A stretch of 64,000 nucleotides of DNA. Origin: Spirochaetia bacterium (GTDB lineage Bacteria > Spirochaetota > Spirochaetia > SZUA-6 > Bin103). Every line of letters starts with the position of its first letter. Within the stretch, counting starts at the first letter, position 1. Positions 11,671 to 34,539 of this stretch are shown piece after piece. The translations under genes and the position numbers were made by a program. The stretch is taken from NCBI GenBank assembly GCA_965208575.1, contig CBDBOV010000006.1:1312001-1376000 (forward strand), written 5' to 3'. The notes below the pieces were generated by a model. It ran no database searches and was not told where the DNA came from. It saw nothing but the letters and a program-made list of their open reading frames with translations.

Positions 11671-13044
11671 GTGACCTCGGCGCTGCTTACCGATCTCTAC
11701 CAGCTTACCATGGTGCAGGGCTACTTCCTGCGCCGCCGCGACCCGCTGGCGGCGTTCGAGCTGTTCTTTCGCCGCGCGCCGTTCGGCGGCAGCTACGCGT
11801 TGGCCGCCGGCCTCCAGGACGCGGTCGACGCCATCGCCGCGCTGCGCTTCACCACCGACGAGCTGGCATACCTGCGCAGCCTGGAGCTGTTCCGCGACGA
11901 GTTCCTGGCGTTCCTGGCGGAGTGGCGGTTCCGCGGCGCGCTGCACGCGGTGCCGGAGGGCACGGCGATGTTTCCCGGCGAGCCGCTGGTGCGGGTGACG
12001 GCGCGGCTGACCGAGGCGCAACTGGTCGAGAGCATGCTGCTCAACGTGATCAACTTCCAGACCCTGATCGCGACCAAGGCGGCGCGCATCGTGCAGGCGG
12101 CCGGCGGCGGTCCGGTGCTGGAGTTCGGGCTGCGCCGCGCCCAGGGCCGGGATGGGGCGCTGTCCGCCGCCCGCGCCGCCTATATCGGCGGCGTGCAGGG
12201 CACCTCCAACGTAGCGGCCGGCCAACGCTACGGCATCCCGGTGGGCGGCACCATGGCGCACTCCTGGATCCAGTCGTTCCCGAGCGAACAGGAGGCGTTC
12301 GACCGCTTCGCCGAGCTGTACCCCGAGCGGGCAGTCCTGCTCGTCGACACCTACGACACGTTGGCCAGCGGCATCCCGCATGCCATCCCGGCGCTGACCA
12401 GGTTGCGGGAGCGAGGACACGGCGGCTTCGGCGTGCGCCTCGACAGCGGCGACCTCGGACCGCTGAGCCGCGCGGTGCGGGCGCGCCTGGACGCCGCCGG
12501 ACTCCGGCAGGCACGGATCGTGGCCTCCAACGACCTGGACGAGGCGCGCATCAGCGAGTTGCGCGCCGCCGGCGCCCCGATAGACATGTGGGGCGTCGGC
12601 ACCCGCCTGGTCACCGCATACGACGACCCCGCCCTCGGCGGCGTCTACAAGCTGGTCGCCGTACATGACGGGGCCGGCTGGCGGCCGAGCGCGAAGCGTT
12701 CGGAGGAGGCGGGCAAGGCCACCCTGCCCGGCATCAAGCAGGTGGTGCGCTGCCGGGGGCCGGAAGGCGCAACCGAAGACCTGCTGTGCCTCGCCGACGA
12801 GGCCTCGTCCCTTGCCTCCGTGCATACCGGCGAGTTCCGCACCCCCCTGCTGGTGGAGTGCATGCGAGCCGGCCGGCGCCTCGCACCGGCCGAGCCGCTG
12901 AGCGTCATCCGCGACCGCGCTGCGGCAAGCCTCGAAAGTCTGCCTCCGACCACGCGTGCGCTCGTCAATCCGGCTCCCTATCCGGTACGACCTACCCCCA
13001 CACTGACCGCGATGCAACGCCAGACTGCGCCACACGACGCTTGA
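11671..13044 (+). CDS. pncB: Nicotinate phosphoribosyltransferase
   Basis: ALLTDLYQLTM, EFGLRRAQG, GTMAHSW, LVDTYD, GVRLDSGDL, ASNDLDE, GVYKL. Confidence 0.95.
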   Translation: MTSALLTDLYQLTMVQGYFLRRRDPLAAFELFFRRAPFGGSYALAAGLQDAVDAIAALRFTTDELAYLRSLELFRDEFLAFLAEWRFRGALHAVPEGTAMFPGEPLVRVTARLTEAQLVESMLLNVINFQTLIATKAARIVQAAGGGPVLEFGLRRAQGRDGALSAARAAYIGGVQGTSNVAAGQRYGIPVGGTMAHSWIQSFPSEQEAFDRFAELYPERAVLLVDTYDTLASGIPHAIPALTRLRERGHGGFGVRLDSGDLGPLSRAVRARLDAAGLRQARIVASNDLDEARISELRAAGAPIDMWGVGTRLVTAYDDPALGGVYKLVAVHDGAGWRPSAKRSEEAGKATLPGIKQVVRCRGPEGATEDLLCLADEASSLASVHTGEFRTPLLVECMRAGRRLAPAEPLSVIRDRAAASLESLPPTTRALVNPAPYPVRPTPTLTAMQRQTAPHDA

Positions 13045-13049
13045 TGCGC

Positions 13050-13230
13050 TCAGGTACTCCCCACGAACCTGACCCGCCCGACCCGATTCCGGGAAAGTCG
13101 TGAGATGATCGACAGCGCGTATGACCCGGTCGACGACCGATTGCGCGGCAGGTAGGCTGGTGAGTGCAATGTAGTCGCGAATATGGGCGAGGTCGCCGAC
13201 CGCGGATTCCTGCCACCTGAGTTCGACCAA
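13050..13230 (-). pseudogene. RelE/ParE toxin, 3'-truncated
   Basis: VELRWQESAVGDLAHIRDYIA...FPESGRAGQVRG; toxin-like sequence stops there and the frame runs antisense into pncB. Confidence 0.7.
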
Positions 13231-13236
13231 CAGGGG

Positions 13237-13449
13237 CTACTTGCGGAAGAACTCTCGGACCTGTTCCTGGGTGAGGAAGGAGCCTGGATCCCTGAGACGA
13301 CGCTCGGCCTCCGCAACCTGCTCGGAACTGAGGCGTACACTGCGCGGACCATCCTGGACGAAATTCAGCAGCAACCCGGCCGCTTCGTCCTGCCGCTTGC
13401 TCGGCAGGGTCCGAATTGCAGCGATCGCTTGCGAGAGCAACCTCGTCAT
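13237..13449 (-). CDS. Antitoxin partner of the ParE remnant
   Basis: MTRLLSQAIAAIRTLPSKRQDEAA...LSSEQVAEAERRL; position directly upstream of the toxin. Confidence 0.7.
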   Translation of the reverse strand: MTRLLSQAIAAIRTLPSKRQDEAAGLLLNFVQDGPRSVRLSSEQVAEAERRLRDPGSFLTQEQVREFFRK

Positions 13450-13607
13450 TACTGTCACTCTACCAACGACCGCAAGCCCTGGCGAGTCCCAGGCAGTCCC
13501 TGGCGAAACCCACCTGACTCCGGCGCCGAACGGGGCGCGCGGCGACGTGAACCACCTCGCCCGAGGATTCGTAATTGTGTAAGTTGGTTTCCATTTTCGG
13601 ACGATGA

Positions 13608-13627
13608 AAGTATGTTACATGTAATAC
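13608..13627 (+). promoter_or_regulatory. Palindromic operator candidate
   Basis: Perfect palindrome TTACATGTAA (13615-13624) in an AT-rich patch about 25 bp before the RHH-like gene. Confidence 0.4.
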
Positions 13628-13649
13628 CGCCCGGGAGGAGTATCATTCA

Positions 13650-14057
13650 ATGGGCAAGGACGACAAGACCGAACGCAAGCGGGCGGACGGGCCGCAGGTG
13701 ATCGCGATCAAGCTCGACAAGGCGGACGGCGCCGTCGGCGATGCGATCGGGGAGGTAGTCGCCACCACGGTCGGCGAATCGCTGCGCACTACGATCGAGT
13801 CGGTGCGCAGCAAGCGCGACAACGTGGTGATGGTCCGCGTCAGCGGCGAGAGCCTGACCAGGCTGGACGAGCTGGTGGATTGCGGCCTGACCAACAGCCG
13901 CTCGGAAGCGGCGGCGTTCCTGATCGCCGAGGGGATCAAGGCGCGCCACGACCTGTACGAGAAGATCGCCGAGCAGAGCAGGGTGATCCGGCAGGCCAAG
14001 GAGCGCCTCAAGGCGCTGCTCGACGACGAGGCGATACCCGAACCGGACGACGAGTGA
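13650..14057 (+). CDS. Ribbon-helix-helix-like hypothetical protein
   Basis: NVVMVRVSGESLTRLDELVDCGLTNSRSEAAAFLI followed by a coiled coil; RBS GGAGG; overlaps the next gene (GTGA). Confidence 0.65.
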   Translation: MGKDDKTERKRADGPQVIAIKLDKADGAVGDAIGEVVATTVGESLRTTIESVRSKRDNVVMVRVSGESLTRLDELVDCGLTNSRSEAAAFLIAEGIKARHDLYEKIAEQSRVIRQAKERLKALLDDEAIPEPDDE

Positions 14058-14554
14058 GCCACGCTGCCAACGATCGCACGGTCCACACCTTGCGGGTGAA
14101 CGGAGCCGAGCGGCGCGTCACGGCGGCACCGGATACGCCGCTGCTGCTCGTGCTGCGCAATGACCTGGGACTGACCAGTCCGAAGTACGGCTGCGGCGCG
14201 GAGCAGTGCGGGGCATGCATGGTGCTGGTCGACGGCCAGCCCGCGCCCACCTGCCGGCTGCCGCTGCGGGCGGCGGCCGGGCGCGCTATCGTCACGGTGG
14301 AGGGGCTGGCGCCGGGCGCGGATCTGCACCCGATTCAGGAGGCGTTCATCGAGCACAACGCGATTCAGTGCGGCTACTGCGCCGGCGGGGTGATGATCGC
14401 GGCCGCGGCCCTGCTGGCCCGGGAGCCATCGCCGACCCGGGAGCAGGTGCAGGCCGCGCTGGACCGCAACATCTGCCGCTACGGCGCCCACAACCGGATG
14501 ATCCGTGCCACGCGGCACGCCGCCGCGGCCGCGGCGCACGAGTCGGCACCGTGA
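14054..14554 (+). CDS. IorA/NicA-type [2Fe-2S] subunit
   Basis: PKYGCGAEQCGACMV, QCGYCAGG, NICRYGAH (the last expected Cys appears as Tyr). Confidence 0.88.
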   Translation: MSHAANDRTVHTLRVNGAERRVTAAPDTPLLLVLRNDLGLTSPKYGCGAEQCGACMVLVDGQPAPTCRLPLRAAAGRAIVTVEGLAPGADLHPIQEAFIEHNAIQCGYCAGGVMIAAAALLAREPSPTREQVQAALDRNICRYGAHNRMIRATRHAAAAAAHESAP

Positions 14555-17500
14555 ACGGCCGCATCGCGGAACGGCTGCGGTTCGAGCCCGACCGCACCGT
14601 CACCGTCCTGTCCGGCAAGGTGGAACTGGGCCAGGGGCTGAACGATGCGCTGACCCTGATCTGCAGCGAGGAGCTGGCGCTGGAGCCGAACCGAATCCGC
14701 GTGCGCTGCGGCGACACCGGTGCCACTCCCGACGACGGCCTCACCGCCGGCAGCGGATCGATGGAACGTGCCGGCGCCGCGGTCCGGGCAGCCGCACGCG
14801 CCGCGCGCCTCGAGTTGATCCTCCGCGCATCGAAGCGTCTCGGTGTGTCGCCCGGACGCCTGGTAGCGCACGCCGGGACGATCTGCCGGCACCCCGATGA
14901 CGTCGGCGGCGAACGGGGTCCCGCCCACGGCAAGGCCCCGCGTACGGCGGACCGCCCGCACAGCGGCCGCGGCTCCACGGCCCCCGCAGCCGGCGCAACC
15001 GCGGCCGGCGGCGGCATCGACTACTGGGAACTTCTCGACCCGAAGGACGCCGCGGCCCCGCCGGTTCGTCACGGCCACGCCGACGCGGCCGGCGCGACCT
15101 CCGCCGCAGCCGGGGGCGCCGCGCCCACGGGCAGCACCGCTGCGGAACTCGGTAGACGCCAGACTCACCGGAGCCGCCCGGCTGCGGCCGGGATGCCCCC
15201 GGCACCCGGCGACCGAGATCATTCCTCGCCCATCACGGTCGCCGCGCCGCGATCGGCACCGGTGGACGGCGCACGGCAAGTGCGCGATTCGTTTCCGCCG
15301 CCCCCCAAACCGGATGCGCAGCACCTCCCGACCACGGCCCCGAACCGGCCACTCGCTGCGCAGCGGAGCGAGTGGTGGCGGCGGGTGGACCGGGTGGTGC
15401 GCGCATGCGCCAACTTCGTGCACGACCTGCGCCTGCCGGACATGGTGCACGGCCGGGTGCTGCGCCCGCCCGGCTACGAGTACCGGCTCAACGCCGTGGC
15501 GGCGGACGCGGCGCGCGCCATGGACGGCGTGCTGGCGGTGGTGGTGGACGGCAGCTTCGTGGCGGTAGCCGCGGAGCGCGCGGAGCAGGCGGACGCGGCG
15601 CACGCCGTGCTGGCGGCAAGCGCTCGCTGGCAGCGGCAGGCGGACGCGCACCCAGGCGAGCGCCGCGCACCGGCCGAGACCACGCCGACCCGGCAGCACG
15701 GCGCTCAGGTACCCCGCCCGCCCGCCGACAGCGGAACACCGCAGCGCGGTTCGCAGGCCGCCGCCGCGGCCACGACGCTGCTCCGACGCCGGTCGCCGGC
15801 ACCGGGCTCGCCCGCGGCCGGTCGCGCGGCCCTGCGCGAGGCGCGGGCCGAGGTCACGCCGGGCCGGCAACGCGGATCCCCGTCGCCGGACCCGCCCGCC
15901 GCCGGCGCGACCGCCGCGCTCGACACGCCGGCCGCCGCCACGCCGCCGGCTGCCCGTGGTGGAACCCGGCGCGGCACCGACAGCGGGCGAAGCGCCCCGC
16001 CGGCGCGGCTCGGCTTGCCCGCCGATGGGCGCGCGGCGTTGTACGCGGCAAGGGCCGAGAGCAAAGCGATTCTGCGCCGCGGTTCGCCGCCCGACACGCA
16101 CACCGCCACCGTCTCGGCAACCTACTCGCGCCCGTTTCTGATGCACGCGTCGCTCGGGCCGTCCGCCGCCGCGGCGCGCCTCGACCGTGACGGCGGCCTG
16201 ACCATCTGGTCGCACACCCAGGGCCCGTACGAGTTGCGCGCCGCGCTGGCCGAGGCGCTGCGGCGCGCGCCCGAGACCATTCGCGTGATCCACGTCGACG
16301 GCGCCGGCTGCTACGGACACAACGGCGCCGACGACGTGGCGCTGGACGCGGCCCTGCTGGCGCTGGCGGTGCCGGGGCGGCCGGTACTGGTCACCTGGAG
16401 CCGGGAAGACGAGCACCGCTGGGAGCCATACGGGACGGCGATGATCGTCACCTGCAGCGCCGACCTGGACGCCGCCGGCTCGGTAACACGCTGGCGGCAT
16501 GAAGTGCGCAGCCACGCTCACGGTACCCGGCCACGCGGCACGCCGGGTCACTCCACGCTGCTGGCCGCCTGGCACCGCGCCACTCCCCTCACGCCGCCGG
16601 CGCCGCGCAACGGCACCGACCTTACCGCGGGACCGCAGCGCAACGCCGAGCCGTTGTACGACTTCCCCGGGCTCGCCATCACCACTCACTTCGTACCCGA
16701 GGCGCCGCTACGCGTGTCCGCGCTGCGTTCCCTGGGTGCGTTCGCCAACGTGTTCGCGATCGAGTCGTTCATGGACGAACTGGCGGCGCGCCGCGGCGCG
16801 GACCCGCTCGCCTACCGCCTGTGCCACCTGCGCGACGAGCGCGCCGGGCGGGTGCTTTATGCGGCGGTGCGCGCCGCCCCGGGCCGCCCCGCCCCCGCAA
16901 CGCGGTCCGTTCTCTCTCCCGCGCCAGACCCCGTCACCTCTGCCGATCACCACCGAGTCGTCGGCACGGGCATCGATTTCGCCGAGCCGGTCCGAGCCGC
17001 CGATGCACCTGCCACGGGCGCGGCGGCAGCGCCGGCCTGCACCGGTGACGAACGCCCGTTGGCGCCGGCGGCAGCCACCGCAACCAGCACCTCCGCCGAA
17101 CCTGCGCGGGCACCCGCACGTGCGCCAACCGGGAGACCGCCGGGGCCGCCGGGGCCGCCCGGGCAATCGCCGGCGAACGCCACCGGAGTGGCTGTTCCGA
17201 GCGCTACCGGCAACGAGCTGCGCGGGCGCGGCATGGCCGTGGCGCGCTACAAGAACCTGCAGGCGTGCGTGGCGGTGGTGTGCGACGTGGCGGTCGACCC
17301 CGGCAGCGGGCGGATCCGCCTGCTGCACGCCGCCATCGCCGCCGACGCCGGACGCATCGTCGACCGCGACGGGCTGGCCAACCAGCTCGAGGGAGGCTTC
17401 CTGCAGGCGGCGAGCTGGACGCTGAAGGAGGCGGTGCGCTGGGACCGCGAGGCGATCCGCAGCACCGACTGGGACACCTACCCGGTGCTGCGCTTCAGCG

Positions 17501-22884: not shown

Positions 22885-23104
22885 CCGTGCCTGACCGCGC
22901 CCGCCGCGCCACATTGGCCGGCACAGGCGTCGCTCCGGATCCTGACCCTGTCGCAGACACGCGGAGCAGCGCCCGTCGTCCTGCGCCGACTGTGGCCGTG
23001 GCGTGGTAGTCTGTCGCCATGGCGAGAGGCGCAACACCGGCCCGTGCACCCCGCTCAGCCACGTGGGTGTCGCGGTGCTGCGTTACCGTCCGGGGAGCCG
23101 CCGC

Positions 23105-24904
23105 GTGAAGCTGTTGCACTACCTGGAGATCCAGAACTTCAAGCGGTTCGGCGACAGCGAGCGCATCGAACTGGATCACCCGGCGGTGCTGATCGGACCC
23201 AACAACTGCGGCAAGACCACGGCCATACAGGCGATCGCGCTGTGGTCGCAGGCGGTGCGGGCGTGGCACGCAAGCAAGGGCAAGGCACCGCCGAGGCAGC
23301 GCACCTCCACCTCGTTGAACCGCCTCACCATTGTCGCCGTACCCGTGCAGCGTACGCGCTACTTCTGGCACAACGCGGCCGTGCGCGCCGGCAACACCGA
23401 CATTCCGTTGCGGATCACGCTCGGCGTCCTGCACGACCACAAGGTGGAGCCGGTTACGATGCAGTTTCGCAATCAGGGTGAGGACCTGGTGTACTGCACC
23501 CCCGACGAATCGACCCTGGCGCGGCCGGAGCTGGTCGCCACGGCCGCCGCGCTGAACGTCGAACTGCTCTATCCGATGTCGGGCCTGGAGACCGAGGAGC
23601 CGATTCTGCAGCGCGGGCGCATCGACGTGCTGCTCGGCCAGGGCCAGACCGCGCAGGTGCTGCGCAACCTGTGTCTGCTGGTATACCAGGCGAACCCGGA
23701 TAACTGGAAGCGGATCGCCGAATGGATGCAGCGCCTGTTCAACGTCACGTTCAGCGACCCGAAAGAGACCTCTCGGGGAAGCATCGACCTGTTCTATCGG
23801 CAGGATTCGGTCAGAGAACCCCTCGACGTTGCCGTGGCGGGCCGTGGTTTGCAGCAGATGCTGCTGTTGCTAGCGTATCTCTACTCGCATCGCCGCAGCG
23901 TCATCCTGATCGACGAACCGGACGCGCACCTGGAGATCCTGCGGCAGAAACAGGTGTACGTCCTGTTGCGCGAACTTGCCGCCGAGAACGAGTCACAAGT
24001 GATTCTCGTCACCCACTCGGAAGTGATCCTGGACGAGGCGCTCGACCACAACCTCACCCTCCTCCTTGCCGGCCGGGCCGACGACGTGGCGGCAAGGGCC
24101 TCAATCAGAAATGCGCTCAAGCACTACGGCGCCGAGCACTACGTCCGCGCCCGCGAACGGGGCTACGTGCTGTATGTCGAAGGCGGTACCGACATCGAGA
24201 TCCTCCGAGCCCTGGCCGAACGGATCGGGCACCCCGCAGCGGCCGAGTGGGACGAGCGAATCAACTCGTTCTACGTGGCCGACAACTATCCCGACACCAG
24301 CCTGGATTCCGAGCTGGCCCGCGTCGAGGGGGGCTTCGGCGTCACGCCGCAACGGCACTTTCACGCACTGCGCGGCATGGTGCCGGGGCTGATCGGACTG
24401 GCGATCCTCGACAACGATGGGAGGGCGCGCCAGGACTCCACCGAAGGCGGACTCACCATCCGTTACTGGCAGCGGTACGAATGCGAAAACTATGTCGTAA
24501 CGCCCGAGACGCTGGGCGAGTTCGCCAGGGACTACTACCGGGAGACCCCGTTGTTCGGTGGATTCCAGACCGAGATCGACGAGAGCCTGGACACCGTGAT
24601 TCTGGAACACATCTTTGCCGGCCGCGAACAGGACTTCGAACTGTGGCGGGCGGCGGACGAAGCGACCCGGCGGCTGCTGTGGGAAGCTCGCACCGAGCAC
24701 CTCAAGCTGAGTTCGTTTGCCGAGGAATTCTTTCGCCGTCTCGCGCAGCGGCTCGGACACGCCATGCTGCTGCGCAAAGGGGAACTCCATCGGCTCGTGG
24801 AGTATCTTCCCGTAGAGCGCATTCCCGAGGAGGTCGCCGGCAAGCTGGACCTGGTCGCCGGCCTGTTCGCGGGCGCCCGCCGCGAACAAACCGAGACCGG
24901 ATAG
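23105..24904 (+). CDS. ABC-type ATPase fused to TOPRIM-like domain (OLD/AAA_21-like)
   Basis: LEIQNFKRF, GPNNCGKTT, GRGLQQ, ILIDEPDAHL, VTHS, then YVEGGTD and LDND. Confidence 0.8.
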   Translation: MKLLHYLEIQNFKRFGDSERIELDHPAVLIGPNNCGKTTAIQAIALWSQAVRAWHASKGKAPPRQRTSTSLNRLTIVAVPVQRTRYFWHNAAVRAGNTDIPLRITLGVLHDHKVEPVTMQFRNQGEDLVYCTPDESTLARPELVATAAALNVELLYPMSGLETEEPILQRGRIDVLLGQGQTAQVLRNLCLLVYQANPDNWKRIAEWMQRLFNVTFSDPKETSRGSIDLFYRQDSVREPLDVAVAGRGLQQMLLLLAYLYSHRRSVILIDEPDAHLEILRQKQVYVLLRELAAENESQVILVTHSEVILDEALDHNLTLLLAGRADDVAARASIRNALKHYGAEHYVRARERGYVLYVEGGTDIEILRALAERIGHPAAAEWDERINSFYVADNYPDTSLDSELARVEGGFGVTPQRHFHALRGMVPGLIGLAILDNDGRARQDSTEGGLTIRYWQRYECENYVVTPETLGEFARDYYRETPLFGGFQTEIDESLDTVILEHIFAGREQDFELWRAADEATRRLLWEARTEHLKLSSFAEEFFRRLAQRLGHAMLLRKGELHRLVEYLPVERIPEEVAGKLDLVAGLFAGARREQTETG

Positions 24905-24965: not shown

Positions 24966-25823
24966 ATGCCGATTACCGCGGCCGCAGAGCGCGAGCAGTT
25001 GATCCGGGACGGGTATTGCGTGTTCGAGCAGGTGCTCGATGCCGGCACGGTGGCGGAGCTGAACGAGATGAGCGAGTGGACGCTCGCGCAGGTGGACGCC
25101 TCCCACTTCGCCGAGAACCGGGCGCGCGGCAGCATCATCCCCTACTGGACCTACCCGCACCCGGCCTTCGCCGAGTTGCTGGCGCATCCGGCCGCGCTGG
25201 CGGCGTTCGCCCGGCTCGGGTTCGACCGGCCCCGGGTGTGGAGCGGGTTCGTGATCAGCAAGCCGCCGCACAGCCCGCCGCTGCACTGGCACCAGGACGG
25301 CCTGCTGTGGGAGCATCCGATCAGCTACACCGACCAGCCGCAGCAGTACTTCCTGATGTACTACCTGGTCGACACCAGCCGCGACAACGGCTGTTTGCGG
25401 CTCATACCGGGCTCGCATCTCAAGCGCCACCCCCTGCACGATCAGGACCCGCGCGCTACCGGGGAGCACGACGTGATCCGCGACGTGGCGCTCGATCACC
25501 CGGCGTTCCAGCCCGCGGAGGGAGAGGTCGACGTGCCGGTTCGTGCCGGCGACGTGGTGATCGGCGACGCCCGCCTGCTGCACTCGGCGCACGGCAACGG
25601 CAGCGACCGGCGGCGCACGGTGCTCACCATCTGGTACTGGCCCGCCTACGACGACCTGCCGGGAGCGGTGAAGGCGCTGATCACCGACCACGTCGCCGAG
25701 TCCCCCGAGTGGTGCGACTGGGTGCGGGCGACGCGGTCGATCACCGCGCCGCTCATCCCGGCCTACGACGGCGCCGCCAAGGCGCCGCCGCTGCGCACCG
25801 CCCCCGGCCCCGCCCTGCGCTGA
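24966..25823 (+). CDS. Phytanoyl-CoA dioxygenase (PhyH) family
   Basis: DGYCVF, LHWHQD, NGCLRLIPGSH, AGDVVIGDARLLH. Confidence 0.9.
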   Translation: MPITAAAEREQLIRDGYCVFEQVLDAGTVAELNEMSEWTLAQVDASHFAENRARGSIIPYWTYPHPAFAELLAHPAALAAFARLGFDRPRVWSGFVISKPPHSPPLHWHQDGLLWEHPISYTDQPQQYFLMYYLVDTSRDNGCLRLIPGSHLKRHPLHDQDPRATGEHDVIRDVALDHPAFQPAEGEVDVPVRAGDVVIGDARLLHSAHGNGSDRRRTVLTIWYWPAYDDLPGAVKALITDHVAESPEWCDWVRATRSITAPLIPAYDGAAKAPPLRTAPGPALR

Positions 25824-26036
25824 CCGGTTCCCGGAGACCACGGGCCGCTACGCTGCCGGCGCCGACGGCCCGAGCCGGGCGCACGCTCCGCCGCGGGAGT
25901 CGCCGCCGCACGCGGAGCTGATGCGCAGCGTGGTCCGTCGCGTGAGCGACGGGTACGGCTTCGCCCGGCGGGCGGGCCGCGCTGGCCGGGTGGCCGGTCT
26001 TGCGGGCCGTTGCGCCGGGCGCTACATTCCGGCGCG

Positions 26037-27173
26037 ATGAACGTACAAGAGGACCGGGTACGACTCGGCGTGATCGGCTGCGGGATGGTGAGCGACTCCT
26101 ACCTGCAGACCCTGCAGCGGTTCGACCACGTGGTGTTCGCCGCCTGTGCCGACCTGGATCCGGAGCGGGCGCGGCGCGTAGCCGCGGAATATGGGTTCGC
26201 ACGCGCGTGCAGCGTCGATGAACTGGTGCGCGGAGACGACACCGACCTGGTGCTCAACCTGACCATCCCGGCGGCGCACGCCGAGCTCAACCTGGCGGCG
26301 CTGGACGGGGGCAAGCACGTCTACTCCGAGAAGCCGCTCGGCATCACGCTCCAGGAAGCTCAGGAGGTGCTTCGCCGGGCCGAACACCTGGGTGCGCGCG
26401 TCGGCTGCGCTCCCGACACCTTCCTGGCCGGGGGCCACCAGCACTGCCGGGACCTGGTCGACCAGGGCGCCGTCGGCCGGCTGGTCGCCGCGTTCGGCGC
26501 CGTGGCCGGACACGGTCCCGACGCCTACCACGCCAACCCGCACTTCTTCTACGAGCAGGGCGCGGGGCCGCTGCTCGACCAGGGCGTGTACGTGATCACC
26601 GCACTGCTGCCGCTGTTCGGGCGGGTCAAGGCGGTGTCGGCGCGCGCCCAGGTCGGCATCACCGACCGCACGGTGCTCACCGAGCCGCGCTTCGGCGAGA
26701 AGATCGACGTGCAGACGCCCACCCACCTGGTGTGCGCCCTGGAATTCGAGGCGGGCGGCCTGGCCAACCTGATGGTGAGTTGGGAGATCTGGGCCTCCAA
26801 GGTGCCGTTGATGGAGGTGTACGGCACCGGGGGCACCATCCGGCTGCCGCACTGGAACCACTACGAAGCCGAGTTCGACCTGTACCGCCACGGGCCGGAG
26901 GGCGGCACATGGCAGGCCGTCACGACCGAGCGCCCCTACGCCGCCGGCTCCTGGCGCGGCCTGGGCGTGGCCGACATGGCGGCCGCGCTCCTGTCCGGCC
27001 GCCCCCACCGCGCCTCCGGCGAGCGCGCCAACCACGTCCTGGAGATCATGGCCGGCCTCGTGCGCTCCGCCAAAACCGGCGCCCCGATCCCGATCACCAC
27101 CCCCTACACCAAGCCCGACCCATTCCCCGCCCACCTCGCCGACGGCCACCTGGACCAACTCCCCGCAACCTGA
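26037..27173 (+). CDS. Gfo/Idh/MocA family oxidoreductase
   Basis: LGVIGCGMVS, GKHVYSEKP, GCAPDTFL, GAGPLLDQGVY. Confidence 0.92.
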   Translation: MNVQEDRVRLGVIGCGMVSDSYLQTLQRFDHVVFAACADLDPERARRVAAEYGFARACSVDELVRGDDTDLVLNLTIPAAHAELNLAALDGGKHVYSEKPLGITLQEAQEVLRRAEHLGARVGCAPDTFLAGGHQHCRDLVDQGAVGRLVAAFGAVAGHGPDAYHANPHFFYEQGAGPLLDQGVYVITALLPLFGRVKAVSARAQVGITDRTVLTEPRFGEKIDVQTPTHLVCALEFEAGGLANLMVSWEIWASKVPLMEVYGTGGTIRLPHWNHYEAEFDLYRHGPEGGTWQAVTTERPYAAGSWRGLGVADMAAALLSGRPHRASGERANHVLEIMAGLVRSAKTGAPIPITTPYTKPDPFPAHLADGHLDQLPAT

Positions 27174-27261
27174 ATCCCTACAGAGAGATACTCGATGTCC
27201 TCATGTGCGAAGAAATAGGACAACCTAGCGCAAGCTAGTCGTCTACGCCCCTGGTGGGCGG

Positions 27262-30261
27262 CTACGCGTCAATCTGCTTGCGGATGTCCGCCGCAATTTT
27301 GAGAACTTCCACTGGTGCGCGCACCTCTTCACCGGTGCGCTGGCGCAACGCTACGACGAGCGGGGCCAGTGCGTCGGACTTCTCCGGATCACTCGACAGT
27401 GTGTCAAGCACCTCTTGGTCTGGACTACCGCCGGAGACCAGGAGGCGCACGCAGTCTATCAACTTGCCCGTCATCACATCGCTTACGGGAGCGAATGCAG
27501 CATACAGGGAACGAAAAGCACTATCACTTCGGCTTTTGTCGCCTCGTTTGATCAGGATCATCATCCTCATCCATCGCGCGTTCCACTCGAACGGAACTCC
27601 CCTATTGTCCAACAACGAGCCGTATCTGGTCTCCAGTTCGTCGCAGCCGTGCAGAGCACATGCTTCCTTCCCAATCGTGATGTGTGTCAAGCTCCTAAGA
27701 AAAATCGCTTGTGCTACCAATGATCGTAGATCAGTCGAGTCGCTATTACGAAGACGCTCCACTACTTCGTTGAATGATGCAATAGCAACCATGCGTGTCT
27801 CTCGCTGTGTCTGAACGACTCCCTTGTTGATCAACGCTCCGGCGCATATCCTCCGCAGCTCCGGGGCATCACAATCGCCAAAACGCTCCACAACAAGGTC
27901 ATATATTGTCACCTCGGCTTCGTGTTCACCAAGCTCCCCGTGTACGCAAGCCTTGTTGAACATAGCTTGGGCAACAAGCTCCCTTACATACGGCCCTGCA
28001 TAGACGCTGAAGCGCTTCAGCAGTTGGTCATAACTCGCGGTCGCCAGAGCGCGCTCCCCACGTTGGGATTCCGAAAATCCCTTGTTGAAAATCGCTTGGG
28101 CGACAAGCACCTGCAGGTCCTGTATAGTGCTGTCTCCAAAGCGCTCAATCACCTCGTTGTAGGTCCTTGTCTCTGCTGCGTACAGCGCTTGCTTACGTTG
28201 CACCTCACCCTTGTTTACCAACGCTGCCGCCACCATCTCCAGGATATTTCGAGATTCACTCGTACCAAAACGCCGTACGACCTCGTCGCACGTTGCCATC
28301 GCGGCTGCATGCCGGTGACACTCTCTCTGCTCAACGCTCTTGCGGAACATTGCACGGGCTACCGCACTCTGCAATTCAGGATCGTCGCTTCGTCCGAAAC
28401 GAAGCACAACGTCGTCGTTGGTCGCAATCGCAGCGTGGAACTCTCCACATTTCTCGTGCGAAATTGCCTTTCTGATCATTGAGAAAGCGACTATTCTCCG
28501 AACATCGGACGTGTTGTTTGTGGTAGAGCGTTTAATCACCTCTTCGTAGATAGGAATCGCATCGGCATGTCTTTTCTGCGTGTCGCACGCAATTCCGCTA
28601 CCCAACAACGCACGACAGACCGAGACCTGCAATTCCGGGGCGCTGCTTGATCCGAATTGTGTCACTACCTGCCCGTACGACAAGGTCGCCGCCGAATACG
28701 CGCCAGTCGTGTGTTGCACAATCCCTTTGTTGATCAGACTCGCGGCGACCCAAACCTGAAGGTCTATTTCATCGCTCGAACCGAATCTGTCGATTGCCTC
28801 GTCGTAAGTCGCAATCGCGGCGCGATGTTCTCCGAGCTGTCCTTGAACACGGCCCTTTCTAACGATCGCGGAAGCGACCTGCACGAGCGAACCCAGGTCT
28901 CGGCGGGAACCCAGGCGCTCCACGACCCTATCATAAACGACTATCTGCTTGATGTCTGTCCATGCACCGTCATTGAAGGCGTGGTCGAGCTGCGAAATCT
29001 CCATTCTAGCCCGCTCGATGCCGGCTCGGATCACAATGGATCGCGAGGCCTCCGAGATCAGGTGACCAGACAAAGCGACAATCTCCTCGTTGCGATAGAA
29101 GGCGATCATGAATCGGAGCAGGTTCTGTACGACGGCCGCTTCATCACGTTGGCGGCGCAACTGGTAGTAGATGGAGTATAGGGGTTCCGCAACTTCGTAG
29201 AGCCGCCTCCTGCCACTCCCTCGCGCGCGCACGGCGTGACGCTTGACGAGCCGCCCCAGCATGGTCGAGACGGTTCGTACGTCCATCCGCGCGTGGTCGG
29301 AGATCTCGCCTGTGCTCGACGGTTGCCAGAGGTCGGCAATGGCCAGGAATACGCGGCGCTCGATTCTGGGGAGAGCTTCCTGGTAGCCGCGGAAGGTGTC
29401 CGTCAGATCGTCAACCAGTTGCGCCAGTTCTTCCATCAACTGGCGCAGGGAACGGTGTCTGGCGAATCCGGCGACGATGACTACGTAACGGGGAGAGCCG
29501 CCGGTCAGGATCTCAAGCGCCCTCTGCTGGCGTTCGCTCGCCGCGTCGCCACTCACCACCTCCCACAAGCGTCCGCACTGCGCGGCATTCAACGGTGCGA
29601 GAGCGATAATTCGGAACAACTCGAAGAACGGTTCGCCGGCGTCATCCAGTGCCTCGAAGCGGCTGGTCGCAGTGGCCAACAGGATGATCTGCGGCTCGGT
29701 CTGCAGCGTCTTGCGCAGGTTCCAACCGAAGTCTTCGTCCACGTTGGCGCACAGCGCCTGCAGGTTCTCCACCATGAGGACGAGACGCCTGCCAAGTGAG
29801 CACGCAGCCTCCAGGACAGCGACGCGGACACGCTCGTCGAGCTCCCGTTCCCGCCAGCGGGTGGCAAGGTCGTCTCGGGTTGCCCGCAGGTTCCGTGCGA
29901 GCCCGGGGTTCTCCTTGTCGACAGCGTTTGCAAGATAGAACAGAACCTCCAACCAGAAGTCCGCGGCGCTGAGGATCTCGTCGCTCTCCTCCATGAAGCG
30001 AACGGGCAGCAGGTGATCAGAGAGCTCGGAGTTGCCGCGTAGTTCAGCGGCGATACGAGCCAACAGCATGGTCTTCCCCCTGCCTCTCGGGGCCACGATC
30101 AATGTGTGCTGGCAGGAGTCGACGGCGACATTCCCCCGAAGAGTCTCAAGCGCGATGGCGAGTTCGTGCTCTCGGACCACGAACTGCGCCCTGACTTCCT
30201 CGTCAGACTGGAGCATTCCGGGATTGCGCTTGCGAATGATCCGCGGTTGCGATTTACTCAC
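27262..30261 (-). CDS. P-loop ATPase-wHTH-TPR repeat protein (STAND-like), 999 aa
   Basis: GTG start overlaps the upstream stop; APRGRGKT, LVLMVENL, LTGGSPR, wHTH (TGEISDHARMDVRTVSTMLGRL), about ten 43-aa TPR-like repeats. Confidence 0.85.
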   Translation of the reverse strand: MSKSQPRIIRKRNPGMLQSDEEVRAQFVVREHELAIALETLRGNVAVDSCQHTLIVAPRGRGKTMLLARIAAELRGNSELSDHLLPVRFMEESDEILSAADFWLEVLFYLANAVDKENPGLARNLRATRDDLATRWRERELDERVRVAVLEAACSLGRRLVLMVENLQALCANVDEDFGWNLRKTLQTEPQIILLATATSRFEALDDAGEPFFELFRIIALAPLNAAQCGRLWEVVSGDAASERQQRALEILTGGSPRYVVIVAGFARHRSLRQLMEELAQLVDDLTDTFRGYQEALPRIERRVFLAIADLWQPSSTGEISDHARMDVRTVSTMLGRLVKRHAVRARGSGRRRLYEVAEPLYSIYYQLRRQRDEAAVVQNLLRFMIAFYRNEEIVALSGHLISEASRSIVIRAGIERARMEISQLDHAFNDGAWTDIKQIVVYDRVVERLGSRRDLGSLVQVASAIVRKGRVQGQLGEHRAAIATYDEAIDRFGSSDEIDLQVWVAASLINKGIVQHTTGAYSAATLSYGQVVTQFGSSSAPELQVSVCRALLGSGIACDTQKRHADAIPIYEEVIKRSTTNNTSDVRRIVAFSMIRKAISHEKCGEFHAAIATNDDVVLRFGRSDDPELQSAVARAMFRKSVEQRECHRHAAAMATCDEVVRRFGTSESRNILEMVAAALVNKGEVQRKQALYAAETRTYNEVIERFGDSTIQDLQVLVAQAIFNKGFSESQRGERALATASYDQLLKRFSVYAGPYVRELVAQAMFNKACVHGELGEHEAEVTIYDLVVERFGDCDAPELRRICAGALINKGVVQTQRETRMVAIASFNEVVERLRNSDSTDLRSLVAQAIFLRSLTHITIGKEACALHGCDELETRYGSLLDNRGVPFEWNARWMRMMILIKRGDKSRSDSAFRSLYAAFAPVSDVMTGKLIDCVRLLVSGGSPDQEVLDTLSSDPEKSDALAPLVVALRQRTGEEVRAPVEVLKIAADIRKQIDA

Positions 30262-31508
30262 CGGGCTTGACCTCCAGCATGATCCTGCGAGTGGGCAGCA
30301 AGGGGAACGTGGTGATTGCGGAAGCGTGCGGCCCACCAGTCTCTCAGTGGATGCAGTTGGAATCGATAGAGATCTTCGCTGACTTCGAGATAGCCGTCGT
30401 GTTCCAGCACGTCGAGAACCTCGGTGATGCGGCCCTGGGCGTCGGGCACTACTCGGGAGTAGAGCTCGCCGAGACGGGACCGCGTGCGTGGCGTGAACAC
30501 TCCTTGCGTGGCGGCCTCGGCGAGGATCTCCATGGCGATGGAGCGGTTCTCCTCGTCGAGTGCGTCGCGGAGACGGGTTTCGTAGTGGGCCAGGTCGTTC
30601 TGACCGGAAGGGCCAAGCACCCCTGTGCGGTATACTCTCTCGACATCGGCCACCGTCACCACATCGCGGTTCTCCATGACGGAGAAGTCCCGTAGCCTTG
30701 CGAAGAACGATTGCACGTGATGCGGGATGCCGATCCCGAGCGCGTCGTATACCGCCGCGGCGACGCCGTCCTCGACCGACAATGAGGCACTGTTCGCGAG
30801 CCGGTCGAAACAAGCGACGCTCTCCTCTCGGTTCCAGGGTCCCAGGCGAAACGGCGCAAGGTAATTGATCCGATCGGGTATACCGAGCCGGTGCACCAAC
30901 GGGGTCAGCCCGATGCTGCCGGACACGATGAGGACCGGGGAGTGATCGCCAAGACCTTGCAACACGCCACGCAACCAGCTCAGGAACCGCTCGACTCGGG
31001 TAGCGCCGTCCTGAGCGCGCAGCATCCGCTGGAGAAAGATCGGCAGTTCGTCGATCACCAGAAGCACGCGCCGTTCGTTCTCCGCGCAAGCCTGGAGGAG
31101 GCGCTCACCGTGGCGCCTCCAGTTTCCAGCGTCCAGACCCGCCCGGATCTTCAAGCGAAACCCGCTCACGCCGATTTCCTCGACGGCTTCAGCCGCCCGC
31201 CGTCGCAGACCGGCCAAACTGCCTAGTCGGGACACGATTGGCCGAACCGGGTACGCGGCCCGCGCAATATCGGCAATCACGTCTTCAGGGCAGGTGGCGT
31301 CTTCGACGTCGGTGAACAACGTTACCCATGCGCCGGAGTCCGTGAGCCGGCGCTCGAGTTCACGAACTATGCTCGTCTTGCCCATGCGCCGCTGGCCGGT
31401 CAACAGCACGTGGTTGCCTTCTTGTACCCGGTTCTCCAGGACGCGGAGCTCAGGTTCTCGGTCGAAGAAGTCGGCGCCGCTAACCCAGCGGCCGGTGGCT
31501 GATCTCAT
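30258..31508 (-). CDS. P-loop ATPase (archaeal-ATPase/STAND-like) with C-terminal wHTH
   Basis: FFDREPEL, TGQRRMGKTS, LLVIDELP, IVSGS, GIPHHVQ, LEHDGYL. Confidence 0.88.
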   Translation of the reverse strand: MRSATGRWVSGADFFDREPELRVLENRVQEGNHVLLTGQRRMGKTSIVRELERRLTDSGAWVTLFTDVEDATCPEDVIADIARAAYPVRPIVSRLGSLAGLRRRAAEAVEEIGVSGFRLKIRAGLDAGNWRRHGERLLQACAENERRVLLVIDELPIFLQRMLRAQDGATRVERFLSWLRGVLQGLGDHSPVLIVSGSIGLTPLVHRLGIPDRINYLAPFRLGPWNREESVACFDRLANSASLSVEDGVAAAVYDALGIGIPHHVQSFFARLRDFSVMENRDVVTVADVERVYRTGVLGPSGQNDLAHYETRLRDALDEENRSIAMEILAEAATQGVFTPRTRSRLGELYSRVVPDAQGRITEVLDVLEHDGYLEVSEDLYRFQLHPLRDWWAARFRNHHVPLAAHSQDHAGGQAR

Positions 31509-31760
31509 GATGCACACAGTCTACGAGCACTACCGTATTGTCGTCAACCATATTGTTGACTACTTATTGGTTGACCATAGTTCCGGCTTCGTGCGCGCTG
31601 AGAGCCCGTGACTTCTCTCTACGCGCGAACCGGCGCCGCCCCAAGGGCCGGTCCGCCGGCGGTTGTGGCGCTGGCGCGATTGTTGGAGGATTGGCGCGTA
31701 CGACGTTCCGCCCGGCACCGGCTGGAACCGCCGGTCGGCACGACCGAGGGAGAGCGACCC

Positions 31761-32870
31761 ATGAGTGAATACCAGTACTACGAGTTCCAGGCAATCGATC
31801 GGCCACTGAGTGACGCGGACCGGCAGGCGCTGCGGGGGCTGTCGACGCGGGCACGGATCACGGCCACGAGCTTTACCAACGAATACCATTGGGGCGACCT
31901 GAAGGGTGATCCCGTACAGTGGATGGAGCGCTGGTTCGACCTGCACCTGTACGTCGCCAACTGGGGAACGCAGCGACTGATGATCCGGCTGCCGCTGCGG
32001 CTGGTCGCGCGGTCACGGCTCGATCGCTTCCTCCGCGGCGTCGACCTGGTCCGGATTCGCGAGTCGGACGACAACCTGATCGTCGATATTCACCAGGACG
32101 ACGACGAGCCGCGCTACACCTACGAGAACGAGGACGACGACGCCGACCGTCTTGCCATGGCCCCTCTGCGCGCGGACGTACTGGCGGGGGATTGGCGGCT
32201 GTTCTACCTGCTGTGGCTGACGGCGGTTGAGAGCGGCGAGCTGAATGACGGCGATACCGAGCCGCTTCCCGGCATCGGTCCGCTCACCGGCGCTCACAAG
32301 GCGTTCGCCGATTTCTTCGGCATCGACCAGCACTTGTTGCATGCGGCCGCCGAGTCGCCCCTGAACGCGGACGGCGAACTCTCCCAAGCTGAGGTCCACG
32401 ACGTGGTGGCGGCGATTCGGGACACGGAGAAGACGGCGCTGCTGTGTCGTCTCGTCGCAGGCGACCCTCACGTGGCGGCGGAGCTGCGACGCACGGTACG
32501 AGAGGCCGCGGCCACGGCAGACCACACCGACTCCGGTCATCGGACGGTCGCGGTGTTGCACACGCGCGCAGCGGAGATTCGCAAGCAGGCCAAGGCCGAC
32601 GCCGAGGCACGGCGTGAGGCAGAGCGCCGCGCAGGCCTCGCTGTCGTCAGACGGCGGGAGGCGGCGGTCTGGCGTGAAGTCAGGACGGAAATCGAGAAGC
32701 GCAGCGCCCGCGGCTACGACCGGGCGCTGGCACTGCTGCTCGACCTGCGGGCGCTGGCCGAGGAGGATGGCACACTGGCGGCATTCTCGGACCGTGTTCG
32801 CTCGCTCCGGGTCCGCCACTCCCGCAAGCCGCGCTTCATCGAGCGCCTGCAGCAGGTCGACCTGCAATGA
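31761..32870 (+). CDS. Conserved hypothetical protein
   Basis: MSEYQYYEFQAIDRPL...WFDLHLYVANWGT...GDWRLFYLLWL...RKPRFIERL; coding-like codon bias; overlaps the MazG-like gene (ATGA). Confidence 0.8.
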   Translation: MSEYQYYEFQAIDRPLSDADRQALRGLSTRARITATSFTNEYHWGDLKGDPVQWMERWFDLHLYVANWGTQRLMIRLPLRLVARSRLDRFLRGVDLVRIRESDDNLIVDIHQDDDEPRYTYENEDDDADRLAMAPLRADVLAGDWRLFYLLWLTAVESGELNDGDTEPLPGIGPLTGAHKAFADFFGIDQHLLHAAAESPLNADGELSQAEVHDVVAAIRDTEKTALLCRLVAGDPHVAAELRRTVREAAATADHTDSGHRTVAVLHTRAAEIRKQAKADAEARREAERRAGLAVVRRREAAVWREVRTEIEKRSARGYDRALALLLDLRALAEEDGTLAAFSDRVRSLRVRHSRKPRFIERLQQVDLQ

Positions 32871-33238
32871 CGGACCGTCCATCGAATCCACGGCAGCGGG
32901 AGGACACGGGATCCTTTGCCGGTTATCAGCGCCGGTCGCGCCGCACCTGGAGCCGGGTGGTAGTGGATCACGCCATTCTCTACCCCACCCTCGGACTCAC
33001 CAACGAGGCGGGCGAGGTAGCGGGCAAGGTAAAGAAGATCTTCCGCGACAAGGGCGGGGTGATCGGCGAGGAGGACCGCGCCGCCCTGAAGAGCGAGCTT
33101 GGCGACGTGCTGTGGTACCTGGCCCAGATCTGCACCGACCTCGACCTGTCGCTGCAGGAGGTGGCAGAGGAGAACCTGACCAAGCTGGCCCGCCGCCAGC
33201 AAGCCGGCACCCTGCAAGGCGAAGGCGACAACCGGTAG
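32867..33238 (+). CDS. MazG-like NTP pyrophosphohydrolase
   Basis: LGLTNEAGEVAGKVKK...ELGDVLWYLA...NLTKL...GEGDNR. Confidence 0.9.
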   Translation: MTDRPSNPRQREDTGSFAGYQRRSRRTWSRVVVDHAILYPTLGLTNEAGEVAGKVKKIFRDKGGVIGEEDRAALKSELGDVLWYLAQICTDLDLSLQEVAEENLTKLARRQQAGTLQGEGDNR

Positions 33239-33321: not shown

Positions 33322-33654
33322 TCACCGTGCGCTGTTGAGTTCCTCCACCAATTCATCCGGCGGATAGTCGACGGCCGGTACCCCGGCGGCACCGAGCAAG
33401 GCAACGAATTCCTCCGCGGTCGCTGCCGCAAGTCTTGCCGCCTGAACGAGGGTCAGGTGGCGCTGCTCGAACAGGCGGATTGCCAGGGTACGGTGGACAC
33501 CGAGTTCAAGCAGGCGTTCGTCGAACGGAACTGCCAGAATGGCCGGGCGACCACGCTTCGTGATGAGCGACAGATGCCCACGTTCCGCCTCCCTCATAAG
33601 ATCACCGGACCTCTGCCTCAGGTCCCGCACACTGAACACATCGACTGAATCCAT
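33322..33654 (-). CDS. Phd/YefM + UPF0175 antitoxin-like protein (copy 1, no toxin downstream)
   Basis: FSVRDLRQRSGDL...LITKRGRP...LTLVQAARLA; near-identical to 39295-39627. Confidence 0.85.
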   Translation of the reverse strand: MDSVDVFSVRDLRQRSGDLMREAERGHLSLITKRGRPAILAVPFDERLLELGVHRTLAIRLFEQRHLTLVQAARLAAATAEEFVALLGAAGVPAVDYPPDELVEELNSAR

Positions 33655-33736
33655 CGTCGCTCCTTGTTGTGCCCACAAAGCGTAACACATACATGACCCA
33701 AGCAGCACGCCCCTTGCCACGTGCACGTGCGGTGAA

Positions 33737-33952: not shown

Positions 33953-34156
33953 ATGTCACGCACCAATATCGATATCGACGACAAGGCCTGTGCGGCGATC
34001 ATGCGCCGCTACCGGCTAGGTTCTAAGCGGGAGGCGGTCAACCTCGCGCTGCGTACGCTCGCGGCGGAGTCCCTGAGTCTGGTCGCCGCCCGGCGCCTTC
34101 GCGGATCGGGGTGGGAAGGCGATCTGGACGAAATGCGTGGCGCCAGGGGAACGTGA
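33953..34156 (+). CDS. vapB: VapB antitoxin
   Basis: MSRTNIDIDD...SKREAVNLAL...GWEGDLDEMR. Confidence 0.88.
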   Translation: MSRTNIDIDDKACAAIMRRYRLGSKREAVNLALRTLAAESLSLVAARRLRGSGWEGDLDEMRGARGT

Positions 34157-34539
34157 TCCTGATCGACACCTCGGCGTGGGTGGAGTTCCTGCGTGACACT
34201 GGGTCAGTGGTCAGCATGCGGGTCGACGCCGAGTTGGACGGCGACATCGCGATCTGCGATGCGATCCGGATGGAGGTACTCGCAGGCGCACGAGACGAGA
34301 GCCACCTTGAAGCGCTTCGAGGGTTGCTGGCGCGGGCGAGCGTGCTACCCACCGAACCCGCGCACTACGACGCGGCAGCGACGCTGTACCGTCGCTGCCG
34401 TCGTGAAGGCGAGACGGTGCGGCGGCTGATCGACTGTCTGATCGCCGCCGTCGCGATCGGTGCCGACGTACCGGTGCTGCATCGCGACGACGATTTCGAC
34501 GTGCTGGCCCGTCACACCGAATTGGATATCGTCCGGTGA
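34153..34539 (+). CDS. vapC: VapC PIN toxin
   Basis: ILIDTSAWVEFLR...EVLAG...IDCLIAAVA...LHRDDDFD. Confidence 0.92.
   Translation: MILIDTSAWVEFLRDTGSVVSMRVDAELDGDIAICDAIRMEVLAGARDESHLEALRGLLARASVLPTEPAHYDAAATLYRRCRREGETVRRLIDCLIAAVAIGADVPVLHRDDDFDVLARHTELDIVR

Follow-up and report, generated by a model that had tools for sequence, protein, structure and literature searches.

A 64,000-nucleotide stretch of a Spirochaetia bacterium genome (GenBank assembly GCA_965208575.1, contig CBDBOV010000006.1, positions 1,312,001 to 1,376,000; hereafter the window) carries two overlapping genes, gene 1 and gene 2. Together with a promoter and an operator of their own, they make up a genuine and clearly delimited two-gene module that is widespread and has no name. 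A preliminary description of the window, made from its letters alone, had proposed a coupled pair of ATPases with a repeat-bearing sensor as a candidate NLR-like defence or sensing system. To its anatomy we add the operator and promoter, a conserved tail at the end of gene 2, and a kinship of both proteins with PF01637 and ORC/Cdc6 ATPases. The evidence best supports a mobile sensor switch of immune type that regulates itself and lacks an effector, with a presumed role in defence, and we put the chances of this reading at about even. The GTGA overlap reported earlier is present at 30258-30261, where the TGA stop of gene 1 (30260-30258) runs into the GTG start of gene 2 (30261-30259), and GGAGG lies nine bases upstream of this GTG. 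Coordinates of all features are given in Table 1.

Gene 1 and gene 2 are inherited together as an obligate unit, in line with the coupled operon of the preliminary description. A search with gene 1 gave 50 genome loci (38-81% identity). In 48 of them, a homologue of the N-terminal half of gene 2 lay directly downstream of gene 1, and the two exceptions had gene 1 fragments only. By record title, these loci belong to Spirochaetia, Gammaproteobacteria, Gemmatimonadota, Acidobacteriota, Nitrospinota, Thermodesulfobacteriota and other phyla or classes. A profile of distant gene 1 relatives gave 80 metagenome loci (26-64% identity), 12 of which were not assessable; in 66 of the other 68, a gene 2-like open reading frame (ORF) started no more than a few bases from the stop of gene 1. 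Plasmids carry pairs at ~24% identity, with overlaps of 4 and 8 nucleotides, in Segatella copri (384 amino acids plus a 298-amino-acid ATPase without TPRs) and Clostridium estertheticum (408 amino acids plus a 943-amino-acid TPR protein). A second pair, 34% identical, sits in the same genome as the window (locus L058, 9016-13031; G000 contig 6, ~672-676 kb), flanked by transposase genes of the DDE and IS110 types and by a DUF1828 gene. Of 40 related genomes, 23 belong to the same family, and 16 of these had gene 1 matches, with 1-6 matches per genome and several of them containing stops; the 17 genomes from seven sister families had none. Outside the pair, no ORF cluster was common to more than six loci in an all-against-all comparison of 3729 ORFs. 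A search for longer, fused forms returned only three proteins; one of these, P0272, is a fusion of gene 1 to gene 2 or a read-through, to which we give little weight since it may reflect an assembly frameshift.

The C-terminal part of gene 2 is a TPR-like array with a very regular period. Comparison of residues 401-900 with themselves gave peaks only at lags of 43, 86 and 129, with mean BLOSUM scores of 0.84-0.90 at these peaks and -0.54 or lower at all other lags. This bears out the strict 43-residue period described before and raises its count of about ten units to eleven, the last of which is degenerate. Pfam matched the region to TPR_12 (6e-11), and the predicted local distance difference test score (pLDDT) of the structure model was mostly above 90. 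Tandem Repeats Finder detected no repeat at the DNA level here, and the units are therefore old and diverged. The region is also more AT-rich than the ATPase part, as had been noticed, with a GC fraction of 0.52-0.56 (400-base windows starting at 27400-28400) vs. 0.60-0.66 over the ATPase parts of the pair; in the flank at 25400-27199 it reaches 0.69-0.78. Identity of the sensor to its orthologues was only 25-43%, relatives of gene 2 carry different TPR subtypes or none, and gene 2 lengths range from 502 to 1745 amino acids. Behind the array stands a helical tail that closes gene 2 in 47 of 48 loci, with P93, L98, G103 and D118 (numbering of alignment A6) invariant across 34 sequences. The longest orthologue, in locus L007 (9249-14486), devotes ~1350 of its 1745 amino acids to repeats and adjoins a gene for another TPR protein of 826 amino acids. 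The gene 2 of locus L009 has 1022 amino acids, and its N-terminal half is 97% identical to that of the L007 orthologue.

The sensor, the tail and the 3' spacer form a replaceable segment among close strains, which agrees with the earlier proposal of an exchangeable sensor module. In the syntenic locus L001, whose flanking genes are 70-96% identical in protein, blastn alignment ran unbroken from 33308 to 29106, was absent down to 27167 and then resumed, with both sides 81-87% identical. We also compared the window with contigs from four sponge-metagenome runs belonging to four studies; for runs X6 and X8, only bridging contigs were counted and uncovered parts were not used. One X6 contig of 5242 nucleotides matched 29106-31398 with 95 differences in 2293 bases (~96% identity) and also matched 26396-27146, with 1843 unlike bases between the two matching parts. 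Both L001 and the X6 strain carry unrelated sequence from residue ~385 of gene 2 onward, and the left boundary at 29106 was identical in these two independent comparisons. The sensor allele of the window was also present in run X5, with 29 differences and 5 gaps over 1313 bases. An X7 contig had 31 bases in place of 676 (28121-28796), a net loss of 645 nucleotides that equals exactly five 43-codon units and stays in frame.

Across the 48 loci, the C-terminal half of gene 2 was always far more diverged than the N-terminal half, which is 53-77% identical overall; in individual comparisons, the identities of the N- and C-terminal halves were, for example, 94% vs. 47% and 91% vs. <35%. The ratio of non-synonymous to synonymous substitution rates (dN/dS) was 0.21-0.45 in the C-terminal half vs. 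0.10-0.19 in the N-terminal half in 12 of 13 pairs, and the N-terminal value was 0.33 in the thirteenth, a near-identical pair. In two pairs, dS of the C-terminal half was ~4 times that of the N-terminal half, which points to a separate history.

The presence of close relatives in the four sponge runs, together with the many record titles that denote environmental metagenome-assembled genomes, brings up the idea that this eukaryote-like TPR protein and a chaperone ATPase would serve sponge symbionts in facing their host. Several of these metagenome-assembled genomes presumably do come from sponge symbionts. However, distant members sit on the S. copri and C. estertheticum plasmids and in soil, sediment and freshwater-type metagenome records, and the operator and winged helices suggest an intracellular role linked to DNA. 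No secretion signal came up, although none was searched for. We therefore regard a symbiosis factor as very improbable.

The two genes also decay at different rates. Gene 1 was frameshifted or partly deleted in 12 of the 48 loci, at 12 different positions, and gene 2 was whole from its start to its tail in all 12. By contrast, gene 2 was broken in just one of the 48 loci, even though it is more than twice as long as gene 1. Assembly errors cannot account for the direction of this bias. We read this imbalance as pointing to gene 1 as the costly member of the pair and to a value of gene 2 in its own right.

The same imbalance is consistent with a selfish addiction module resembling toxin-antitoxin systems, in which gene 1 would be a toxic ATPase and gene 2 an autorepressing antidote whose loss alone would be lethal. 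An autoregulated two-gene operon with translational coupling, mobility and transposase flanks fits this idea as well. However, the gene order and sizes are unlike those of known toxin-antitoxin types, the pair is rare on plasmids, and an antidote needs no hypervariable TPR sensor of 400-1300 residues. This explanation, which overlaps with an abortive-infection form of the immune-type switch, seems to us quite unlikely, yet it is one of the two main rivals, the other being a physiological regulator pair (see below).

Gene 1 has the canonical Walker A and B motifs and the winged helix-turn-helix reported before, with the winged helix at the end of its structure model (AAA+ core, helical lid and winged helix; mean pLDDT 74.5). 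Walker A and the D153-E154 pair were invariant in 38 homologues, and the G-x-G-x-P motif (G258, G260, P262) was conserved. Pfam assigned it to AAA_16 with 39.4 bits (cut-off 32.6), and it fell short of the PF01637 ATPase_2 gathering cut-off (30.2 vs. 33.2 bits). Its top folds in Foldseek were the PF01637 proteins 2qen and 2fna and archaeal ORC/Cdc6. The gene 1 family comprises 2043 clusters at 50% identity with E<=1e-3, or 258 with E<=1e-30. Among the best 150 of the 2043 representatives, nearly all had 380-440 amino acids, and the few longer ones carried extra TPRs or nothing recognizable; P0244 is a gene 1-like ATPase joined directly to TPRs. Relatives are annotated solely with generic "ATP-binding protein" labels, and ESM Atlas matches were likewise generic ATP-binding clusters only.

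Gene 2 has the Walker A motif, the atypical Walker B motif and the winged helix that had been described, in a model with an AAA+ core, helical lid and winged helix (mean pLDDT 88.4). The altered Walker B is a conserved feature, since E165 and N166 were invariant in 40 orthologues and, in 51 wider relatives, N166 was at least 95% conserved and Walker A and a TGGSPR lid motif were kept. Together with the canonical site of gene 1, this matches the proposed pairing of an active with an altered ATPase. Because the catalytic acid of Walker B is replaced by asparagine, gene 2 would be expected to bind nucleotide and hydrolyse it poorly. Pfam returned weak AAA_22 and AAA_16 matches, TPR families and weak winged helix-turn-helix matches, and ATPase_2 was not among them. 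By Foldseek, the N-terminal half was closest to 2fna, 2qen and ORC1; Avs3 (8dgc) and 6mfv, a STAND-TPR protein, ranked lower. Gene 1 and gene 2 had no detectable BLASTP similarity to each other, and a complex prediction for gene 1 and the N-terminal half of gene 2 scored 0.01, which is informative neither way.

Upstream of gene 1, we predict from sequence a sigma-70-type promoter (9 of 12 consensus matches) whose -35 box falls within an array of three abutting operator sites. The gene 1 ATG lies ~3 nucleotides past the inferred transcription start, so the mRNA is probably leaderless. In ten upstream regions from different phyla, GTTGAC was invariant where nothing else aligned, and it was found in 44 of 45 genome-locus upstream regions. 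Of 43 genome-locus upstream regions, 41 contained CAAC-N6-GTTG and 31 had two or more copies, whereas the site was present in 20 of 3920 control blocks. Of 75 metagenome-locus upstream regions, 49 contained it, vs. 9 of 2749 control blocks. A tandem CAAC-N6-GTTG array overlaps the promoter in the majority of loci. Promoters of TTGACA-17-TATAAT type in relatives were likewise embedded in or flanked by arrays. In distant members, the site centre is altered (GTTGGCAAC, GTTGTACAA) and the 15-bp tandem architecture stays. The longest array found precedes the gene 1 homologue of locus L116, where 130 bases (~2910-3040) contain six or more GTTGGCAAC-type sites in a row, again spaced at a 15-bp period. 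The region upstream of the second pair in L058 had no equally clear operator. A second CAAC-N6-GTTG in the window, at 28407-28420 inside the gene 2 repeats, is probably there by chance.

The exact operator site occurs once in the 6.5-Mb genome. Because a conserved operator overlaps the promoter and its exact site is unique in the genome, the arrangement argues for an operon autoregulated by a cassette-encoded winged helix. The winged helix of gene 2 is the better-conserved candidate for the binder because its S-x-x-L-x-R-L recognition-helix pattern (at least 95% conserved in 51 relatives) is conserved in parallel with the GTTG half-site.

These features also bear on a non-immune explanation, namely a ligand-responsive transcription-factor pair of MalT/PH0952 type, in which the TPRs would sense a cellular or host signal and the winged helices would set transcription. 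MalT acts at multi-site promoters, and here too operator arrays stand at the promoter, gene 2 has a canonical MarR/TrmB-like winged helix, and many loci lie among housekeeping genes. However, the exact operator is found once in this genome and no regulon is visible, as one-mismatch matches elsewhere in the genome stayed at control level. There is also no conserved neighbour to regulate, and transfer across phyla, 1-6 matches per genome, sensor replacement and gene 1 decay are unlike a housekeeping regulator. We judge such a pair unlikely, while treating it as a serious rival. A second possibility raised by the tandem sites is an ORC-like initiator pair with iterons, serving the replication or maintenance of an integrated element. 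ORC1/Cdc6 proteins were among the best folds, including for gene 1 the 2qby heterodimer on origin DNA, and the iteron-like sites adjoin the genes. Yet these sites overlap the promoter as operators do, no other conserved element genes lie around the pair, and the pair is absent from phage records and rare on plasmids, all of which makes an initiator pair extremely improbable.

We found no name for the cassette in the literature, and it does not appear in the portions of PMC13092281, PMC12839542, PMC8195603 and PMC6468293 that were available. Both proteins have the P-loop nucleotide-binding domain and the lid with GxP plus winged helix that characterize STAND proteins, and gene 2 alone has the repeat sensor. 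GxP is a hallmark of this class. However, Pfam matches to nSTAND1, nSTAND3 and nSTAND5 were below cut-off for the window genes and their relatives, and PF01637 and ORC/Cdc6 ranked at the top for both proteins, with 6mfv and Avs3 lower for gene 2. Judging from the structure models, fold kinship thus appears closer to PF01637/ORC-Cdc6 than to classic NLR or Avs proteins. The PF01637 proteins 2qen (Pyrococcus abyssi PABY2304) and 2fna (Sulfolobus solfataricus SSO1545) and Orc1/Cdc6 share an AAA+ core, lid and C-terminal winged helix, and the ORC/Cdc6 AAA+ core and winged-helix fold were matched by both our proteins. Those are single proteins with an unknown or a replication function, whereas the cassette has coupled, diverged paralogues, one of them with TPRs and a tail.

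The nearest published idea in the material available is the nSTAND2 operon, a mobile operon of two STAND-type NTPases, one of them compromised, for which a hetero-multimer was predicted (Kaur, Iyer, Burroughs, Aravind 2021, eLife, PMC8195603). The cassette is likewise a mobile operon of two adjacent genes, both for STAND-like ATPases. In the accessible part of that paper, however, the NTP-binding motifs of the inactive member are eroded and GT4 or HEPN effectors are fused to it, whereas gene 2 keeps an intact Walker A, is altered only in Walker B and is fused to TPRs. None of 36 complete gene 2 relatives from metagenomes had GT4 or HEPN, and in the 48 genome orthologues the C-terminus is formed by the conserved tail or by TPRs. 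Six rows viewed of the nSTAND2 alignment lack a P-loop where gene 2 has one, and the four accessions of the two plasmid pairs were absent from those supplement files of PMC8195603 that were searched.

Avs/AVAST proteins resemble gene 2 in combining an ATPase switch with a fast-varying C-terminal TPR-type sensor, as the Avs3 (8dgc) fold match reflects. Avs is a single chain with an N-terminal effector; the cassette has no effector and a second ATPase gene, and the Avs models in PADLOC did not match it. MalT and PH0952 (6mfv) share with gene 2 a nucleotide-binding oligomerization domain, arm, TPR-like sensor and DNA-binding domain, according to the part of PMC6468293 available. They differ in having a separate LuxR or ArsR DNA-binding domain, no partner ATPase and a stable regulon, and they are not mobile and hypervariable; the C-terminal LuxR-type helix-turn-helix of MalT/LAL proteins had no Pfam match in either of our proteins. 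In BREX, an active ORC/Cdc6-like winged-helix ATPase, BrxC, stands beside a degenerate STAND-like BrxB (PMC12839542, available in part), which is a functional analogy to an active ATPase with a degenerate partner. BREX also carries a methyltransferase, PglZ and other components, none of which is linked to the cassette here.

Taken as an immune-type sensor switch, gene 1 and gene 2 would be distantly related PF01637-type (ORC/Cdc6-STAND-like) AAA+ ATPases in a self-contained mobile module. Gene 2 would be the sensor-regulator, binding ATP but hydrolysing it weakly, with a DNA-binding winged helix and a rapidly exchanged TPR array that reads a protein ligand. Gene 1 would be the partner able to catalyse hydrolysis and, probably, the costly component that delivers the output. 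At rest, a cassette winged helix, most likely that of gene 2, would sit on the CAAC-N6-GTTG sites and hold the operon low. A ligand on the TPR array may then open the gene 2 switch, relieve repression and allow ATP-dependent co-assembly with gene 1. The output would be DNA-directed or growth-arresting, with no appended enzyme, and the most likely role would be the sensing of phage or other mobile-element proteins.

A fuller version, in which an NLR-like ATPase pair needs no enzymatic effector, is a tentative proposal that we consider, taken whole, rather doubtful. In it, the TPR protein would be both the operon repressor and the receptor for an invader protein, and ligand capture would free the promoter and make expression self-amplifying. 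The ORC-like partner might then assemble on DNA, where it would halt replication or transcription, or it might drain ATP. Exchange of sensor cassettes would give the system new targets, and the repeated loss of gene 1 would reflect an autoimmune cost.

Several findings weigh against an immune-type switch. A search of 50,697 phage records found no copy, two peptide patterns yielded no confirmed copy in IMG/VR, and only three distant matches came from 72,556 plasmids. As stated in the preliminary description, neither gene has a recognizable effector. We detected no enzymatic effector in gene 1, gene 2 or the best 150 of the 2043 gene 1 representatives, and no enzymatic or STAND effector domain in the 36 complete gene 2 relatives, which combine AAA_16/ORC-CDC6-like domains with a TrmB/MarR-like winged helix and either carry TPR arrays, of several subtypes, or lack them. 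The PADLOC check that the description had proposed matched no named system, and NCBIfam and PHROGs likewise gave no significant family for either gene. An adaptor idea, in which a partner would bear the gene 2 tail domain, was rejected after neither a single sequence nor a 34-row profile found one elsewhere in the genome. Mean dN/dS of the sensor was below 1. Finally, 27 of 39 loci had no PADLOC-type neighbour, several lay between housekeeping genes, and the defence context described next is moderate and suggestive only, a rough impression given without a background rate.

This context scan covered 142 ORFs, the two nearest on each side at 39 loci; of the 167 candidate ORFs, 25 were left out, namely those of five loci excluded by the size limit, three gene 1 fragments and two end-cut ORFs. 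With housekeeping look-alikes excluded, a PADLOC match at E<=1e-10 was found among the four nearest ORFs in 12 of the 39 loci. These matches included IetS, DRT UG21 with PDC-S26, AbiEii, type I methylases, a type IV enzyme and NsnB/AriA-like proteins, as well as PDC-S01, PDC-S18, PDC-S37 and PDC-S45, and Pfam added ParE/Phd, MazE and an integrase near the loci. In L022, the second ORF downstream of the cassette encodes a full-length IetS-like protease (12973-15576; PADLOC 9.9e-278), and in L033 a DRT UG21 reverse transcriptase stands on one side of it and a PDC-S26 nuclease on the other.

In the window itself, the cassette had been placed between an OLD-like gene and MazG and toxin-antitoxin genes. 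All of these are near, but PhyH and GFO oxidoreductase genes separate the OLD-like ATPase from the cassette, and a gene of ~370 amino acids without Pfam, NCBIfam, PADLOC or PHROGs matches precedes MazG. This gene and MazG are both kept in L001 and may form a two-gene module of their own, oriented divergently from gene 1. The OLD-like ATPase is decaying in L001, where it is present only as fragments (residues 338-537 and 607-632), and the VapBC pair was not found next to MazG there. We dropped the OLD-like, MazG and VapBC genes as parts of the system, as they are kept only in syntenic L001.

Table 1. Features of the two-gene cassette and its surroundings, in window coordinates (position 1 is the first base of the window).
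Feature	Coordinates	Strand	Details
Gene 1	30258-31508	minus	416 amino acids from ATG at 31508
Gene 1 Walker A	31374-31397	minus	GQRRMGKT
Gene 1 Walker B	31047-31058	minus	LLVIDE
Gene 1 C-terminal winged helix	~30321-30491	minus	structure model
Gene 2	27262-30261	minus	999 amino acids from GTG
Gene 2 N-terminal half	29106-30261	minus	residues 1-385; AAA+, lid, winged helix, helical arm
Gene 2 Walker A	30070-30090	minus	PRGRGKT
Gene 2 altered E-N Walker B	29761-29775	minus	LVLMVENL
Gene 2 MarR/TrmB-like winged helix	~29191-29367	minus	residues ~299-357
Gene 2 sensor	27535-28953	minus	residues 437-909; eleven 43-residue TPR-like two-helix units
Gene 2 C-terminal helical tail	27265-27534	minus	residues ~910-999; conserved
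Replaceable segment (sensor, tail, 3' spacer)	27167-29105	minus	blastn vs. L001 and X6 contig
Predicted operator array	31530-31573	minus	three abutting 14-bp sites, 15-bp period
Predicted operator site 1	31573-31560	minus	CAAC-N6-GTAG
Predicted operator site 2	31558-31545	minus	CAAC-N6-GTTG, perfect
Predicted operator site 3	31543-31530	minus	CGAC-N6-GTAG
Predicted sigma-70-type promoter	31518-31547	minus	-35 TTGACG 31547-31542; 18-nucleotide spacer; -10 TAGACT 31523-31518
OLD/AriA/GajA/NsnB-like ABC-type ATPase	23003-24904	plus	PADLOC NsnB 2.9e-24, AriA 1e-22, Old 1.4e-15
~370-amino-acid gene and MazG gene	31758-33238	plus	4-nucleotide overlap
MazG-like pyrophosphohydrolase	32867-33238	plus	123 amino acids
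Phd-family antitoxin-like ORF	33322-33726	minus	toxin partner not identified
VapB/VapC pair	33953-34156, 34111-34539		

The family described here is large and spans many phyla, yet it has been labelled only generically. Its 14-bp palindromic operator array, two Walker sites and natural alleles that differ in the sensor alone offer handles for experiments. If the cassette is an immune or conflict module, it would be a STAND/ORC-type switch that works without an appended enzyme, and it may represent a bacterial counterpart of paired sensor/helper NLRs in which sensors are swapped naturally as modules.

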